Assembly (NCBI GenBank): GCA_963776625.1
Contig: CAVZNP010000014.1
Location: 123,280 to 187,279 of the forward strand
Source of the DNA: an uncultured Chloroflexia bacterium
GTDB lineage: Bacteria > Chloroflexota > UBA6077 > CF-72
Length of the DNA: 64,000 nucleotides
Direction: 5' to 3'
Shown here: in pieces, positions 56,001-62,459 of the stretch
Layout: every line of letters begins with the position of its first letter
How positions within the stretch are numbered: the stretch's first letter is position 1
The notes under the pieces: model-generated
Told to the model about the DNA's origin: nothing
Databases searched by the model: none
Seen by the model: the letters and a program-made list of their open reading frames with translations, nothing else
Position numbers and translations under genes: made by a program

Positions 56001-56752
56001 GCAGCGTGGAGCTGATCGCGGATCGGCGCACCCGTCGCCTGGCCTGTCGCGTGGGCCAGGCGTGGTACACGCCCGACTTCGCGGAGGCGCAAGCGCGCGA
56101 AAAAGCGATGGCCAGCGCCGAATCGGTACGCCTGCTGTACGTGGCGACGACCCGCGCTCGCGATCACCTGGTGCTGAGCCTGTTCCGCGGGCGTTTCTCA
56201 GAATCGTCCGCCGCCGCGACGATCGAACGCAATCTGGCCGAAGCTCCGCCCGACCTCTGTCCGCCGCTGGACGTGCCCGCGTACGCGCCGCTCGAACCAA
56301 CTGACCACGTACCAGCGCAGGAAAGCTCGTCCGAAACGTCCGAGTCGCTGGAGTCAGAGCGCACCTGGCTCGCGGCCCGCGCAGCGCGACTGGCCTCCGC
56401 GTCAAGTCCGCCCGCCGCCCTTGGCTGGTGGTCCACCGCCGCCGATGACCACCAGCCCCTACCCAACCTGCCAGTCCCACCCAACGCGACCGACGTCCGC
56501 CGCAACGTCTCACTCCTGGCCGAATTGGATGGCATCCTCGTCGAGGAGCATCTCGACTTGGTGTACAGAATCGGGTCGCGCTATGCGGCAGTCACACGCA
56601 GAACGCGAGAGCCCGATCAAGTGTCAATCGCGGCAGGGGCCTTCAACGCATGTACCGGTTTGACATTGGAGACGGTTAATCTCGTTCCCGCCAACGCCAG
56701 CCGCTTCGATTTCATGCTTCTTGACGCTTCCGGATTTGGCGCGGAGCATTGA
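53012..56752 (+). CDS. addA: AddA/UvrD-like superfamily 1 helicase; frameshifts near 53745, 54765 and 55080; repeat insertion; degenerate C-terminal nuclease
   Basis: EAGAGTGKT, TFTEAAAAEL, STIHAF, IDEFQDTD, VGDPKQSIYRFRGAD, QNFRS, TIHGAKGLEY, LLYVATTRARD. Confidence 0.78.
54690..55230 (+). repeat. 108-bp (36-codon) degenerate tandem repeat inside addA
   Basis: Units begin GACACTGGCGACACTACGTTGCGACCTGACCC at 54790 and 54898, with variants at 55006 and about 55115. Confidence 0.8.
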
Positions 56753-56806
56753 GCTCCGCCCTGGGAGGCTTGACGAGCAACGGCGAAGGGATACGCTAAC
56801 AGCGCG

Positions 56807-57736
56807 GTGTCGGGGGAATCTCTTGACTTGGACGCACGGCTGCGCTTGGAAGCCTTTGCGTTCTTGAGTCAACAGACGGAGCGACACGGGACCACCGAAT
56901 TCCCCCGTGAACTCTTGCAGCGAGGGTTCGTCTTCGACGGGCAACGCGTCCCGCTGCTGTCGCCGCAAGGAATCTTCAAACCCGCGTTGTCAGCGGATGT
57001 CCCACTCAGTATTACGACCGCTCCGCCCAGCACACGGAAACCCTCGAGCTATGACGACCAGCTCGCGCAGAGTGGCGTGCTTGCATACCGGTACCGTGGT
57101 ACGGATCCGATGCACCGGGACAACGTGGGATTGCGACTCGCGATGATGCGGAATACTCCGCTCGTTTACTTCTTCGGGATCGTGCCGGGCCGCTACGAAG
57201 CGATTTGGCCAGTGTTCGTCGTTGGCGACGATCCCGTACACCTCACGTTCACGGTGGTCGCCGAAGATCGAGCGTTCGCTCATATGGACGGAACCCCTGT
57301 TGCACCAGGTGAGGAAGCGCGGCGCCGTTACGTGACCACGCTGGTTCAGCGGCGACTTCACCAACAGGCATTTCGCGAGCGTGTTCTGCTTGCATATCGC
57401 GAGACCTGTGGTATTTGCAGACTTCGGCACCGCGAACTGCTTGACGCCGCGCACATTCTGCCGGATCGAGACCCGCGCGGAGAACCGCTGGTCTCGAATG
57501 GTCTCGCGTTGTGCACGCTGCATCACGCCGCGTTTGACCGCCAGTTGCTGGGTGTGCGTCCCAATCTCATTGTGGAGGTCCGCCAGGACGTTCTGCGCGA
57601 GGCCGACGGGCCCATGCTTATCCATGGACTTCAAGGATTTGACGGGGCTCGCCTGATCGTGCCGCGGCGTGAGGAGTTCCGTCCCAATCGCGAGTTTCTC
57701 GCCGAACGTTACGAGTTATTCCGGAAGGCGAGTTAG
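56807..57736 (+). CDS. HNH endonuclease, putative (modification-dependent) restriction endonuclease
   Basis: RLHQQAFRERVL.AY..CGIC..LLDAAHI..NGLALC.LHHAAFD; N-terminal YRYRG..DN.GLR.A..PLVYF. Sequence looks less GC-rich than its flanks. Confidence 0.88.
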   Translation: MSGESLDLDARLRLEAFAFLSQQTERHGTTEFPRELLQRGFVFDGQRVPLLSPQGIFKPALSADVPLSITTAPPSTRKPSSYDDQLAQSGVLAYRYRGTDPMHRDNVGLRLAMMRNTPLVYFFGIVPGRYEAIWPVFVVGDDPVHLTFTVVAEDRAFAHMDGTPVAPGEEARRRYVTTLVQRRLHQQAFRERVLLAYRETCGICRLRHRELLDAAHILPDRDPRGEPLVSNGLALCTLHHAAFDRQLLGVRPNLIVEVRQDVLREADGPMLIHGLQGFDGARLIVPRREEFRPNREFLAERYELFRKAS

Positions 57737-58135
57737 TCGGGCCTGTCGGGCGTGTCTTGCGCTCGTGCTCTACCTGCCCGGACGATGCACGAGCGCTGGC
57801 ATGGTACGCTCGCTATACGGTCCTGGGCGTGGTCGCGCGTGCAGCAACGCACACTTGCGAGCGTGGCGTTGGCTGCGCCCGACGTGGTGCTGCGTGCGGT
57901 CGTGGCGCCGGATCCTGGGGCGTTGCAGCGGCTGGTAATGGAGGGCGTCTCCGAGCTGGCGCAAGCGTCGGGCCGCGCCCGCCCGTACTTCTCGGGGATA
58001 GTCAGGGGGCGTGCCGGGCAAGCCCGGTGCGGGGAATGACGGACTTCCGGACAGGCGCGGATCAGTCTGGTCGAGGCGGGCCGCCGACACATTCACGGGT
58101 ACGATCGCCACGCTTGTCTGAAGTGGACAAAGCGA

Positions 58136-59018
58136 ATGGAGATCATATCCGCCCACATGCATGAGCCTCGGCCGCTCAGGCCGGTGGACGCCAGCCTGAG
58201 CGAAGAGGTCAGCCTGTTGGTGAACGTGTAATTTGAGGCCGCGCGCGCGAAGGCCTGGCCTGCGTCGGCGTGGACGTGGCCCTGTCTTCGCTCCGCAGGC
58301 GTACACGGACGCTTGCGTGGCGCGCTATCCCGATCGGTTTGGCGGCGCCCTTTCCTTTGACTACAACGCCGACGACGCCGACGTACTTCGACGAGCAGCT
58401 GGCCACCTTCAATCAGCGGCCTGGCATGCTGGCCGGCCGCGACCTGGTTGGCAACGCGCGCGACGCGACGCCGCGGCCTGAATTTGGCGAGGGCAAGTTC
58501 GAGCGGCTCTACGTGGCGGCCGAGAAGCACAACCTGCCGCTCTTCTTTTCGACGCAGGGGCACGCGGAGGTAATGGCGTCGGTTGCGCGGGCGCACCGTG
58601 GGCTGACGATGATCATCGACCACCTCGGCGTGAGCCAGTCGCCGGTGTCGCCGCCGCGGGACGAGCCGTGGGATCGGTTGCCCGGGGCTGCTCTCGCTGG
58701 CGCAGTTTCCGAACGTGCACGTCAAATTCAGCGGGGGCGCCGGTGCTCTTGCGCGAGCCCTACCCGCATCATGACGTGTGGCCGTATCTGCACCAGATGA
58801 TCAGCGCGCTTGGGCCTTGAGCGGCCGATGTGGGGCAGCGACTTCACACGGCCGCGGTGGGTGCCAGTGGGCGGCCTGGCGCCGCGCGAGCAGTGGCACT
58901 TTTACAGTGACTCGATGAGCTATCCGCGGGACACAGCGGAGATTTCGCGGCGGACAGGGAACTCATGCTGGGTGGCAGGACCCGGCGCGTGCCGCGGTGG
59001 CCGAAAGTGGCGGGCTGA
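58136..59018 (+). pseudogene. Amidohydrolase family protein, disrupted
   Basis: MEII.AHMHEP, in-frame TAA 58229-58231, IIDHLG, WGSDFTR in different frames. Confidence 0.7.
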
Positions 59019-59019
59019 G

Positions 59020-59796
59020 GCGTCACATGGCGCTCGGAAAGCGTCACGTGCGGCGTTGAAAGCGTCACGCCGAGGCTGAAAAGCGTCACGCGGGCGCTGT
59101 CCAAACGTCACACGGAGACCTCAAAGGGGCACCTCGCGTGGTCGGGGAGGGTCACGGCGCTCGGGCGAGGCCAGGCGTCACGCGGTGAGGGTCGTGTGCC
59201 GTCAAGGAGGTGGAAAGCGTCACGCGGGATCGTGAGACGCCGCAGCGCCGATCAGGGCGTCACCTGCAGATCAAAAGGCGTCACACGGAGACGAGAGAGC
59301 GTCTCGCGCAGTAAGGGAGGCGTCACGGCGCGCGGGCGCGGACAAAGCGTCACGCGGTGAAAGGCGCACGCGCCAGGGGAAAGTGGCGCGGCAAGCCCGA
59401 ACGCGAGACGCCGTGGCGTGGATTGGGGCGTCACCCGGCGTCGAAAAGCGTCACGCGAGACGAAAAGGTGTCTCGCGTGGTCAGGGAGGCGTCACGGCGC
59501 GGGCGCCGCGCGGGTCACGCCGCGCGGTGAGGGCCGTTCGGTGTCACGGCGGTGGAAAAGCGTCACGACGGAAGGTGAGAAGTCGCTGCGGCGTGGATTG
59601 GGGCGTCACGTGGAGACCAAAAGGCGTCACACGGGAACGAAAAAAGCGTCTCGCGCCGTGATGGGAGGCGTCACGGCGCTCGAGCGTCACGTGGAGATGC
59701 GCAAGAGTCACGCGGAGGTAGGGAAGCGTCACGCGGTGGCGGTTGAGACGCTGCGGAGTGTATTGGGGCGTCGCACGAGGACGGTCGAGGCGTCAC
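59020..59796 (+). repeat. Phased GCGTCAC heptamer array (~21-bp period, ~170-bp higher-order unit)
   Basis: About 20 exact and 10 near-match copies on one strand, counted by eye. Confidence 0.85.
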
Positions 59797-60217
59797 GCCG
59801 GCGGACGAGTTGAGAGGCATGGCCCCGCCGCGGCGCGCGGGGCCGGGGCCACACCCGCGGGGCCGCATCGCACCTCGACATCTCGGCAGAGCCTGGCGGA
59901 CAAGCGTGCTTGCGCGACCGACGGAGCGACGGCAACGGGGCCGGGGACGACGCGGTGTGGGTCTGCTCGGCGGCCTGGACGCTTGCCGACGCGGTGTGTG
60001 GGCCTCGGCGGTCTGGACCGTTGCCGACGCCGTACAGGCCGGCTCCGCGAGACGCGGGCTCGGCGGTACCCGCGCGGGCGCCGCGGCCTAAGCCTCAGGT
60101 GGCGCGGCCAGCCGCCTCGTGCTGTGGTGCGCGTCTGGCGCCTGGCGGCATAACCTTGGGCTGCCGGCGCATAGCTCGCCACACGCTCGCTCACACCACG
60201 CCAGGGGGATGCCTGCA

Positions 60218-61645
60218 ATGCACACACACAACGTTCTGTCCGCGGAGGACGCACTGCGCGATGTCTTCGACGGCGCCATGGTCTGCGTCGGCGGTTTTGG
60301 ACCCGTCCGCAATCGGCCCGTCGACTTGTTGACGGCCCTGTCCGATCAGTCGAACGCTCGCAACCTGACCATCGTCTCAAATGGCTTTCCGCATCAGCCG
60401 CTGGCCGAAAATCGTCAGGTCAAGAAGTTCATCGGTGCCTTCGGCGGCTCGGTGTACCGGCGCGCCGCGGCCAGCGAGGAGCAGATTCGCAGCGGCGAAC
60501 TCGAGTTCGAGCCCTCCCCGCAGGGCATCTTCACCGAGCGTCTGCGCGCCGGCGCGGGCGGCATCGCCGCGTTCTTCTCGCCGGTCGGTGCGCACACGGT
60601 CGTCGCCAACAACAAGGAGCGACGCACGATTGACGGTCGCGACTACATCCTCGAGACGGCGCTTCGACCCGACTTCGGCTTGATTCGCGCGGAAAAGGCC
60701 GACGAGCAGGGCAATCTGACGGGCATCGGCTCCACGCTGAACTTCCATCCGTCCATGGCCGCGGCCAGCAAGGTCACGATCGCGGAAGTCGACGAGATCG
60801 TGCCGGCCGGCTCGATCGCGCCCGAGGACGTCAAGATTCCGGGCATCTACGTCGACCGACTGGTGCTCCACGATAGGAGCCGCGACGAGCAGTCGGACTC
60901 TGAGGAGCGCCAGCGCCGGCAGCGGCGCGTCGTCGCCAATACCAAGGAGTTCGGCCTGACGCAGGACCAGATGGCGATCCGCGCCTCGCTGCTGCTCAAG
61001 CCCGGGCAGTACGTCAATCTGGGCATGGGCATTCCCACCAAGGTTGCCAACTACATCACCACCGAGTCGGGCGTGATGCTCCACGCGGAGAATGGCATCC
61101 TGGGCTACGGACCTCAGCCGTCCGAAGACGAGTACAAGTGGCAGTATTTCAACGCGCAGGGGCAGGCGGTGACGGTGCTGCCAGGCGGCGCGGTCTTCGA
61201 CAGCTTCGGCGCGTTCACCATGGCGCGCGGCGGTCACCTCGACGTGGTGATCCTCGGCGGACTGCAGGTCTCGAGCAACGGCGACCTCGCCAACTGGTGG
61301 GCGCCACACATGGCTGCCGGCGGCATGGGCGGCGCGATGGATCTGTGCACCAACGTGCCGGAGCTCATCGTCATCATGGATCACACCACGCGCGAAGGCG
61401 ACAAGAAGCTGCTCAACGAGTGCACCTATCCGCTGACCGCGCCGCGCTGCGTCACCAAGGTCGTGACGGATTTGGCGTACATCGACGTAGCCGACGGAAA
61501 ATTCATCTTGCGCGAGCTCGCGCCAGGTGTCAGCGTGGAGTACGTGCAGGCGCGGACGGAGCCGCAGCTGGTCATCGCCCCGGATTTGCACGAGATGTCG
61601 TTCGCGGAGGTGCCCACGGGCGCGGTGGCGGCCACGGCGGGCTGA
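60218..61645 (+). CDS. Fused A/B 3-oxoacid CoA-transferase
   Basis: VGGFG, PQG..ERLRAG, GIYVD, VNLGMGIP, HAENG, GGMGGAMDL, C.YPLT. Confidence 0.92.
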   Translation: MHTHNVLSAEDALRDVFDGAMVCVGGFGPVRNRPVDLLTALSDQSNARNLTIVSNGFPHQPLAENRQVKKFIGAFGGSVYRRAAASEEQIRSGELEFEPSPQGIFTERLRAGAGGIAAFFSPVGAHTVVANNKERRTIDGRDYILETALRPDFGLIRAEKADEQGNLTGIGSTLNFHPSMAAASKVTIAEVDEIVPAGSIAPEDVKIPGIYVDRLVLHDRSRDEQSDSEERQRRQRRVVANTKEFGLTQDQMAIRASLLLKPGQYVNLGMGIPTKVANYITTESGVMLHAENGILGYGPQPSEDEYKWQYFNAQGQAVTVLPGGAVFDSFGAFTMARGGHLDVVILGGLQVSSNGDLANWWAPHMAAGGMGGAMDLCTNVPELIVIMDHTTREGDKKLLNECTYPLTAPRCVTKVVTDLAYIDVADGKFILRELAPGVSVEYVQARTEPQLVIAPDLHEMSFAEVPTGAVAATAG

Positions 61646-61972
61646 GCGGACAAGCGGGGTGCATGGGAGCCTGACCAACCGGGGCCAGCCAGCCGGGCAG
61701 TGGGACACCAGTGGCGGCTGCAAGAGGCATCCGGATGGTCGGGCATCGCCTCAGTTCGTCCTCGCCCCCGGATTTGCGCGAGATGTCGTTCGCGGAGGTG
61801 CGTACGGGCGCGGTGGCGGCTACGGCGGGCTGAGCGGACAAGCGGGGTGGATGGGAGCCTGACCAACCGGGGCGCCAGCCAGCCAGTGGGACACCAGTGG
61901 CGGCGTGCAAGAGGCGTCCGGATTGTCGGGCATCGCGTCAGTTCGTCATCGCCCGGGTTTGCACGAGATGTC
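61571..61972 (+). repeat. 187-bp tandem repeat (2 copies plus a partial third) that includes the 3' end of the CoA-transferase gene
   Basis: Units start at 61571, 61758 and 61945 (GTCMTCGCCC..TTTGC.CGAGATGTC). Confidence 0.85.
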
Positions 61973-62459
61973 CTCTTGCGGTGCCGGGGAGGGATCCGTA
62001 ACTCCGCGGCCGTGAACCAGAGACGGGTCCTTCGTGCCTCAGATGACACTCGCTGTGGAGACATGGCCGGGGACTCACCAGTCTTTGCGCTGAGCGGACA
62101 ACTGGCGAAGGCGTAAAACGTGGTTCGTGATCAACCCGGGCGTTGAGCAGCCAGTGCGGCATCATTGGCGATGTGTAGAAGCCGTCTGGGTTGACGCGCA
62201 TCACCCTGGTGCCGCGGCTCGCCATGTTCGACGCGCCCAACCCGGAAATGTGGACTCCTGTTGCCGGTCGGTGCAGGACATCGAGACCCGTCGAATTCAC
62301 TGCCGCGCGGGCCTGTAGGTACGGGGGTCAGAGGCAGCAGGTGGGCTCCCCCGGCGAGATTCTGCGACCGCTCGGCGAGTACGCTTTGCGCGCGAGCCAC
62401 TGGGATCCAACCCTGGCGATCGGATGCGCACCGAGTTGCAGCAGGCGAGGGCGTAGCTG

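Follow-up and report, generated by a model that had tools for sequence, protein, structure and literature searches.

A 777-bp GCGTCAC array as an atypical, expanded member of an interspersed repeat family in a genus of uncultured soil Chloroflexi

We found that the GCGTCAC array at positions 59020 to 59796 of a 64-kb window (the whole stretch of DNA analysed here, 64,000 nucleotides of contig CAVZNP010000014.1 from an uncultured Chloroflexia bacterium) is an atypical, expanded member of a new interspersed repeat family. The family is real and well defined, with signs of constraint on a protein-sized word, and the window array is not a special locus-specific device; that it is one member of a dispersed family changes what needs explaining. 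We hold with high confidence that the array is a non-coding member of this genus-wide family. As the overall explanation we lean, with modest confidence, towards an expanded copy of the genus-wide repeat in which the repeated motif is a recognition site. The source genome, labelled G000, is a metagenome bin of 15 contigs and 7.06 Mb (66% GC, 91% complete, 6% contamination), and the genomes compared with it are labelled G001 to G038. Genes were called with our own codon-usage caller, giving 6232 genes and a coding fraction of 83%.

The array in the window and its reading frames

The array consists of 20 exact copies of GCGTCAC and nine one- or two-base variants, all in direct orientation on the plus strand, and at 777 bp and about 29 units it is the largest copy of the family. 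Every exact copy lies where a first-pass annotation of the same DNA had placed it, from 59020 to 59790, and its nine variants were likewise recovered: 59105 ACGTCAC, 59149 and 59512 GGGTCAC, 59299 and 59646 GCGTCTC, 59468 GTGTCTC, 59541 GTGTCAC, 59705 GAGTCAC and 59768 GCGTCGC. The window holds 38 exact copies in total, and the 18 that lie outside the array are dispersed over 63 kb (7 on the plus strand, 11 on the minus strand), compared with about 27 predicted by shuffles for the entire window. The 7.06-Mb genome contains 2431 copies on its two strands together, a density of 0.34 per kb, and 20 co-oriented copies in 777 bp are therefore far beyond chance.

Each unit of the window array is composed of GCGTCAC, RYGG, five to six free bases and an A/G-rich run. 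Units are 16-27 bp long, a variation that shifts the reading frame, and a regular leading tract at 59020..59111 (plus strand) contains five units spaced 21, 21, 21 and 22 bp. Both periods that had been proposed, of 21 bp and of about 171 bp, were confirmed, with Tandem Repeats Finder reporting period 21 in three rows and period 171 at 59133-59501 (2.2 copies, 74% matches), and alignment resolving four higher-order copies of about 171 bp and a partial fifth. On the plus strand these are H0 at 59079..59249, with about 8 sub-units, H1 at 59250..59420, H2 at 59421..59595, which opens with GGATTGGGGCGTCAC, H3 at 59596..59760, and the partial H4 at 59761..59830, which forms the right edge of the array and contains its last two cores (59768 GCGTCGC and 59790 GCGTCAC). 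The GATTGGGGCGTC-type anchors claimed for this higher-order unit stand at 59250, 59421, 59596 and 59761, and a word search found GGATTGGGGCGTCAC without mismatch in the window array only. An inverted core, read as GAGACGC on the plus strand, closes H0 at 59234..59240 (minus strand) and has equivalents at 59405-59411 and 59745-59751, again as first described. Duplication of a block of about eight units, four times over, by slippage or unequal recombination would account for this structure. The plus strand of the array has a GC skew of +0.18 to +0.26 and an AT skew of up to +0.38.

Eight short contig pieces (151-237 nt) from four public soil-metagenome runs of two studies match the region 58720-60094 without any difference, and four exact pieces overlap the array (58978-59127, 59250-59400, 59383-59544 and 59689-59839), with no single piece spanning it whole. 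One of these runs may be the source sample of the assembly, so the match is sequence support rather than independent replication. The first-pass annotation had named a lack of read support as a ground for refutation, and these exact pieces go against it as far as they reach. Furthermore, since the pieces agree base for base, the frame breaks in this region are not long-read errors.

We observed no sustained reading frame in the array, in line with the earlier claim. Stops occur in all six frames, at 1-13 per frame, and the mean codon-usage score is negative in all six (-0.16 to -0.57), compared with a 5th percentile of 0.12 among 1889 predicted genes, so that the array is non-coding on both counts. 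The alternative is a broken heptad-repeat protein gene (seven amino acids per 21 nt), interrupted by sequencing errors or recent decay, as suggested by a unit length divisible by three, by a consensus that is stop-free in the sense orientation, and by related arrays that run in frame within long open reading frames (ORFs) in G000:C3, G005:C165 and G004:C88. The stops and the frame-breaking units of 16-27 bp argue against such a gene in the window, and short-read pieces identical base for base leave the breaks in place, which also goes against the idea that polishing would restore one long heptad-repeat ORF. Additionally, the codon score is negative even in the open frame of the C3 array (-0.25, GC3 0.61), and 11-bp spacings are frequent in relatives. 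The frame in which the core is read differs between the ORFs (ASR in G000:C3 and G004:C88, SVT in G005:C165), indicating that the conserved thing is a DNA word and not a peptide. For the window, a heptad-repeat gene is already largely refuted, and we give it almost no credence.

The other large arrays, in G000:C3, G005:C165 and G004:C88/C51, are in sense orientation and open in one frame. The first (G000:C3:230415-234500, locus L164) lies within a 1362-aa ORF after ADH domains, those of G005:C165 (locus L188) lie within a 1518-aa ORF before an eCIS_core domain, and that of G004:C88/C51 forms a 540-aa open frame. We read the in-frame repeats at L164 and L188 as low-complexity protein linkers or fusions of neighbouring genes. 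A tblastn search of G000 with the eCIS_core ORF of G005 gave no match. Since the consensus has no stop codon, sense-oriented arrays are seemingly free to expand, and the family thereby illustrates how stop-free repeats are absorbed into long ORFs as low-complexity linkers. Next to the C3 array, at G000:C3:228553-230418, a predicted 622-aa protein, which we take to be an acyl-CoA-reductase-like enzyme, has a (GVG)n run of about 12 copies inserted close to its N-terminus, a further case of a simple repeat taken up by a gene.

A repeat family dispersed through the genome and the genus

A fixed-rule search of the source genome returned 26 segments that make up 23 loci, the window array being one locus of four segments. 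The 22 or more other loci lie on at least 9 contigs, and 20 of 22 fall outside predicted genes. The unit profile drawn from 39 units genome-wide consists of an A/G-rich run, GCGTCAC, R, Y, G, G and then five to six uninformative positions, with a period of 21 bp, and the window units match both this profile and the units found in relatives. The extended word AAGCGTCACRYGG occurs 24 times, compared with once in a reversed-sequence control, and almost exclusively in arrays. Ordinary family members are 60-170 bp long and modular, with a variable leader specific to the subfamily, a 12-bp head (GCGTCACGSGRR), one to seven body units of 21 bp, an 11-12-bp pre-tail with a weakened core, and finally a tail (RYGTCACAAWWT). 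This head and tail architecture is shared across alignments of 13 elements of G000 and elements of G001, G002, G004, G005 and G006.

The window array has the family's unit and departs from its other features. It opens with 21-bp units in place of the 12-bp first spacing of a head, it has no tail word, it carries its own higher-order unit with the GGATTGGGGCGTCAC anchor and the inverted core, and it is oriented on the same strand as both flanking genes, where the family is typically antisense. It is best seen as a lineage-specific hyper-expansion in a spacer beside a decaying gene. This expansion would have arisen in a spacer that is free of elements in relatives, and in the unusual sense orientation, and the window copy would thus be secondary, a side product of the family and not a locus with a task of its own.

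The loci are unevenly distributed, with 15 of the 22 outside the window confined to three stretches (C2 3-34 kb, C3 316-367 kb and C7 761-859 kb) that total 179 kb, about 2.5% of the genome. Contigs C1, C4, C5, C8, C10 and C12 contain no elements by the filter, and looser scans find smaller or variant clusters on C1, C5, C8 and C10. This may reflect heterogeneity of the bin or confinement of the family to certain regions. A link to the origin or terminus was considered and rejected, as dnaA (C7:398 kb) lies away from the clusters and the GC skew is weak, with sign changes that are unusable for placing an origin. We also observed that 24 of 40 tRNA genes sit on C4. No tRNA gene lies beside an element, except that a variant array on C1 (G000:C1:325833-325992; CCGTCAC ... 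ATTGGA, period 21-22, about 7 units) is about 225 bp upstream of tRNA-Leu(TAG); the gene directly before this array is presumably amidase-like.

This distribution bears on two proposals of the first-pass annotation. The first was that the array could be an iteron or centromere array of the window's replicon, and its direct repeats of about 21 bp (17-22 bp being the range expected), conserved core and phased A-tracts do resemble plasmid iterons and type Ib/II centromeres. Such systems occupy few loci beside rep or par genes, whereas this repeat has 22 or more further loci beside unrelated genes; no rep or par gene is adjacent to the array, the nearest ParB_N match on the contig being at C14:255094, about 72 kb away. 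Moreover, dnaA is on another contig, and four relatives have no array in the orthologous spacer. The iteron or centromere reading is thus not supported, already largely refuted, and we regard it as extremely improbable.

The second was a Chi-like tract, or a restriction/methylation-motif decoy tract, tied to the AddAB-HNH genes 1.3 kb upstream. A pair of UvrD-type helicase genes and an HNH_2 gene are indeed present upstream, and the core includes GCGTC, which on the other strand reads as a type IIS recognition word. The genome-wide counts give a different picture, as GCGTCAC at 0.34 per kb is not over-represented and not strand-skewed (1152 on the plus strand, 1279 on the minus strand), and the extended motif is nearly restricted to arrays. 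Additionally, none of the 22 proteins flanking 11 other loci has an AddAB or HNH domain, so that none of the other elements examined adjoins such genes. Neither the Chi-like word nor the link to the neighbouring genes held up, and there is very little to recommend the proposal. An annotator should take the array neither for an origin or centromere nor for a defence-linked part of its gene neighbourhood.

Upon scanning related genomes, we detected a three-core pattern in 6 of the 9 genomes of the genus and in none of 30 other genomes of the order (one of which, G038, is unpublished). A two-core pattern was present in 8 of the 9 genus genomes, G007 being the exception, and in neither of two other genera of the family. 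Reversed-pattern controls gave no match, or one in a single genome, for three cores and none for two. The genus genomes are mostly fragmented bins, 57-93% complete, and the absences are accordingly soft. Similar arrays, which the first-pass annotation had proposed to look for in related genomes, are thus found in 8 of 9 genus genomes, and in the source genome they lie beside unrelated genes. A pattern scan of all species genomes returned, among the matches listed, mostly single chance or coding matches in unrelated phyla, and was informative only for two Chloroflexi bins; in a literature search on the core word GCGTCAC, none of the matches listed was related.

One locus contains a pair of elements. 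At L166 (G000:C7:857613-858750), one gene of about 0.8 kb stands alone between two inverted elements whose 59-nt outer leaders are 95% identical; the gene is apparently frameshifted, and we presume from its translation that it encodes a cytidylyltransferase. In G001, the orthologous site (L022) carries the left element as well. The idea that such outer sequences are transposon ends was rejected, as the 59-nt sequence has only 3 copies and most elements are solitary.

Conservation, spacing and gene context of the motif

Next, we investigated whether parts of the unit differ in their rate of change; earlier, the core had been described as conserved and the spacers as divergent. In the alignment of the four higher-order copies, identity is 83% at core columns (244/294 pairwise cells) and 56% at other columns (432/777), a contrast that is somewhat inflated because the aligner anchors on cores. 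Orthologous loci provide stronger evidence of constraint: unit numbers vary and linkers are unalignable, while a motif of about 15 bp is kept between flanking genes that are only 73-87% identical. In the spacer before the L19 gene, an element is present in 5 of the 6 species loci examined, and in the spacer after the prephenate dehydratase gene in 4 of 6 by the filter plus G005 by BLAST; the T2SSE/T2SSF spacer has 6 cores in G000 and 9 in G001. With both the identity contrast and the survival of the motif alone at orthologous loci, the claim of a slower core is borne out.

Other spacers show turnover. Downstream of gyrA, the family element is present in G000 only, with nothing alignable in G004 and G006. 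In G001 this spacer (L168) is occupied by a palindromic repeat of unrelated sequence, rich in GGGAGAGGG/CCCTCTCCC, which represents a second family of intergenic repeats in the genus. The window array is absent upstream of the orthologous CoA-transferase gene in G005, G004, G002 and G001, and absent after related amidohydrolase genes in G004, G005 and G002. With four same-genus genomes lacking an array in the orthologous spacer, the array cannot be described as a conserved local feature. Given this gain in the window spacer together with persistence at orthologous sites, the family both endures over long times at some sites and can settle in new ones.

A selfish or neutral interspersed minisatellite, which spreads by copying, expands by slippage and has no host function, would explain part of these observations. 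The core would then be kept for the copying machinery or for gene conversion, and an orientation bias would reflect the purging of harmful insertions. Such an element fits with the turnover of spacers, exemplified by the different repeats downstream of gyrA in G000 and G001, with the new array in the window spacer, with unit numbers that vary between species, and with recently homogenised arrays such as that of G005:C303, which has 10 near-identical units. The concentration of 15 of 22 loci in 179 kb fits local spread, and large arrays drift into ORFs as low-complexity linkers, comparable to what is described for large BOX elements (PMC3049150). However, no transposase, terminal inverted repeats or target duplication were found, and the genome has no Y1 transposase. 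Most arrays combine heterogeneous linkers with exact cores, which slippage alone does not produce, and elements persist in the same spacer across species despite the divergence of the flanking genes. We consider a selfish or neutral origin of the whole pattern unlikely, though it is the alternative to which we give most weight.

The geometry of the arrays is more specific. Core-to-core spacings cluster at 11-12, 20-22, 30-33 and 41-43 bp: in G000 we counted 25 spacings of 12 bp, 34 of 21, 5 of 20, 5 of 22, 10 of 30-31 and 6 of 42-43, and in relatives 29 of 11 bp, 16 of 12, 54 of 21, 4 of 20 and 4 of 42. Spacings of 15, 18 and 24 bp have 0-1 cases each in the G000 elements, with one case at 27 and three at 36, whereas the same words genome-wide give a background with peaks at every multiple of three. 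The spacings therefore follow multiples of about 10.5 bp and not codons, as the earlier claim of helical phasing implied, and fit presentation of the cores on the same face of B-DNA.

Because a motif of about 15 bp is kept, linkers are randomised and distances fall on multiples of about 10.5 bp, the unit is most likely a protein recognition site. A linear, asymmetric word of about 15 nt, kept unit by unit, points to a sequence-specific reader, and on this pattern we rate a recognition site as reasonably probable, with the conserved 7-base core probably serving as the docking site for the candidate protein. Word length, A-tract and helical spacing favour a DNA-binding protein; that the substrate is DNA rather than RNA, bound head-to-tail by such a putative protein, we propose tentatively and with somewhat less than even confidence. 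The protein would sit head-to-tail on one helix face of each array, in the manner of OmpR/PhoB-type and BldC-type proteins on their direct repeats. Where short arrays mark gene boundaries, they would then serve as operators, insulators or roadblocks, and the window copy would be a platform of about 29 sites. The multivalent protein-binding platform of the first-pass annotation is thus reasonable in its general form, given the slower core, the survival of the motif at orthologues and the spacings near 10.5-bp multiples, and unsupported in its iteron or centromere form.

A more elaborate version seems improbable to us, namely that a genus-dedicated DNA-binding protein polymerises head-to-tail on the arrays and turns them into polar barriers (roadblock terminators or insulators). 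Oriented Ter or Sal-box sites follow an analogous polar-barrier logic. Clustered arrays would then mark a structured chromosome domain, and the window array, with its 29 sites, would serve as a major point of nucleation or as a sink that titrates the protein.

When examining gene context, we found that elements fill intergenic spacers, mostly between co-directional genes and with the motif on the antisense strand. Co-directional flanks account for 16 loci, the window included (motif antisense in 13 and sense in 3), divergent flanks for 4 and convergent flanks for 3; the two largest arrays, the window's included, are among the sense loci. The distance from the tail to the stop of the upstream gene is -8 to 114 nt at 14 of 22 loci, and that stop is the TGA of the first reverse-complement core at 4 of 13 loci by automatic assignment, or 6 of 13 by eye. 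Between the head and the next start codon there are often about 20-90 nt, an approximate figure given the crude gene caller; so short a distance probably places the element inside the transcript. The flanking genes are functionally unrelated (GyrA C-terminal domain, ribosomal protein L19, RNase HII, prephenate dehydratase, thiolase, T2SSE/T2SSF, enoyl-CoA hydratase, luciferase-like monooxygenase, nickel-insertion protein, NUDIX, PEP mutase and glycosyltransferases). Leader modules show no convincing -35/-10 by eye, and sigma-70 promoter and intrinsic-terminator scans of 58500-60500 returned none of either.

These positions could suggest an element that works at the RNA level, in which pyrimidine-rich antisense words (CCRYGUGACGCUUUU) in 3' UTRs or intercistronic spacers would be sites for an RNA-binding protein, or an unstructured Rho-loading tract, setting termination, polarity or mRNA stability. 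The antisense bias in 13 of 16 co-directional loci, the tail abutting the stop and often sharing its TGA, and the probable location within the transcript all agree with this, as do the C- and U-rich composition of the antisense strand and unit RNA that is no more structured than shuffled controls. A mini-terminator in each unit (a hairpin with a U-run in gene sense) was rejected on the same comparison, since stems reach 4 bp or more in 10-16% of 124 units, versus 18-20% with shuffled linkers, and folding energies are not lower than in controls. RNA structure is not the conserved feature of the family. Whole-array fold z-scores of -5.3 (plus strand) and -4.4 (minus strand) are due to a few local GAGACG/CGTCTC pairs that are not conserved between higher-order copies. 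On the other side, a conserved word of 15 nt is long for a Rho-loading tract, which needs composition only, and an RNA function gives no evident reason for spacings of 11, 20 and 22 nt on 10.5 multiples. Divergent spacers contain four of the loci and convergent spacers three, the two largest arrays are oppositely oriented, and Rfam 15 covariance models gave no match at E<=1 on either strand of 57000-62000 of the window. On balance an RNA-level role strikes us as doubtful, a little less plausible than a selfish element; owing to the orientation bias and stop-codon proximity, both of these rivals stay alive.

Several further points weigh against a DNA-level recognition site. The phasing could be inherited from a 21-bp founder unit and an 11-12-bp half-unit, and the conservation of the core across species could reflect continued copying or gene conversion by a mobilising activity and not host function. 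Some elements lie within likely operons, for example between the T2SSE and T2SSF genes, where an operator is unexpected. The orientation bias and closeness to stop codons would also be expected from an RNA-level or transcription-coupled role, and likewise from selection against one orientation of a selfish element. Furthermore, what is seen of the candidate operator array is its site geometry, several relatives' contigs break at or near elements in genomes that are fragmented, the source genome is itself a bin with 91% completeness and 6% contamination, and start-codon distances carry the imprecision of the gene caller.

Known repeat systems and the flanks of the array

Upon comparing the family with described systems, we found partial likenesses to several of them. 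According to PMC3049150, BOX elements of Streptococcus pneumoniae have the structure boxA-(boxB)n-boxC, range from 67 to 637 bp, and can create ORFs when large. Like them, the GCGTCAC repeats are small, interspersed and intergenic, with fixed end modules and variable tandem internal modules whose number differs between strains or species, and large copies become ORFs. The ends of BOX are terminal inverted repeats and its RNA forms a stem-loop (PMC3049150), whereas the cores here are all direct, no terminal inverted repeat was found, and hairpins are not above shuffles. The internal module here is 21 bp long with only about 15 bp conserved, and the sequences are unrelated. Short members of the family therefore share the variable tandem modules of BOX and lack its terminal inverted repeats and stem-loop.

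MIRU units are about 46-101 bp long and carry a short ORF coupled to the downstream start. The unit of the GCGTCAC family, in contrast, is 21 bp, and a MIRU-like coupling ORF was rejected, as a three-frame reading of 13 loci showed no consistent bridging ORF. The two are alike in their minisatellite-like tandem units within co-directional spacers, their fixed orientation, their contact with stop or start codons and their variable copy number (PMC12548453, and in part general background). The heptameric arrays of Xanthomonas and Nostoc, as described by Rehm et al. 2015, are pure heptamer runs that form G-quadruplexes; they resemble the family in being strand-asymmetric, between aligned ORFs, near stop codons and variable in unit number (PMC4692102), and the period of 21 is 3 x 7. 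The GCGTCAC family differs in keeping one heptamer in three, with free linkers and a defined head and tail.

Among bacterial interspersed repeats, palindromes that depend on hairpins for their function or maintenance predominate; REP, BIME and REPIN elements are palindromic hairpins, often in inverted pairs, that occur with a Y1 (RAYT) transposase. The GCGTCAC family is similarly lineage-specific, multi-copy, intergenic, kept across related species and probably maintained by a cognate protein, as REP and REPIN elements are, yet it has no palindrome or hairpin enrichment, and Y1_Tnp (PF01797) had no match in the 91% complete source genome, which indicates no RAYT. CRISPR repeats are about 23-55 bp, with unique spacers of similar length and cas genes. 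The repeat was rightly judged too short for CRISPR, with a conserved part of 7-15 bp and linkers of 5-6 bp; cas genes were not searched for.

OmpR/PhoB-family boxes have a 7-bp core and a 4-bp linker, with an 11-bp period, and the arrays of OmpR/PhoB, of BldC in Streptomyces, of plasmid iterons and of ParR/omega stand at promoters, origins or centromeres with the cognate gene nearby. The family shares with head-to-tail operators a 7-bp asymmetric direct core, spacing by integer turns, a variable number of sites and A-tracts between cores, and differs in having 23 loci with unrelated neighbouring genes, many of the loci being 3' of a gene. By analogy, the family would work most like direct-repeat operator arrays or iterons, although it is neither confined to a single locus nor accompanied by a cognate gene. 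What sets it apart is the use of direct repeats only, a 15-bp word kept across species, free linkers and helical-turn spacings; direct repeats, a kept word and helical spacing together are the signature that a protein recognition array would be expected to leave. If a cognate protein exists, about 130 of its sites per genome are now mapped in an uncultured soil Chloroflexi genus, which is of relevance to bacterial repeats and to nucleoid and regulatory proteins.

Finally, we examined the flanks of the array. An amidohydrolase-like pseudogene (Amidohydro_2) occupies 58237..59018 on the plus strand, with ...DRELMLGGRTRRVPRWPKVAG* as the end of its last frame at 59018. The array sets in 2 nt past this TGA (59016-59018), directly after the amidohydrolase stop as claimed; the stop is real, but the gene described there is not intact, being broken over at least three frames. 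With exact short-read pieces covering 58720-58870 and 58888-59124, it is probably a true pseudogene. Its best intact relative found is 73% identical over 107 aa (G004:C171). To the right lies a GC-rich (0.73-0.77), non-coding spacer at 59797..60118 with a 38-bp tandem repeat at 59948-60030. Neither this spacer nor the array has a counterpart at the orthologous site of G005, where, judged from the alignment, the amidohydrolase-like and CoA-transferase genes stand roughly 100 bp apart. Within the GC-rich spacer, near 60090, there is a possible relic of an older amidohydrolase stop. The CoA-transferase gene (CoA_trans) follows at 60209..61645 on the plus strand, the same strand as the motif.

Two further observations concern the wider surroundings of the array. 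The stretch 56500-57750 has a lower GC content (0.59-0.62, versus 0.66 for the genome), contains the HNH_2 endonuclease gene directly after the UvrD-type helicase genes, and looks like an acquired insert. Additionally, a tandem duplication of about 188 bp at 61578-61954, with copies 92-95% identical, takes in the last 68 nt or so of the CoA-transferase gene and DNA downstream of it.

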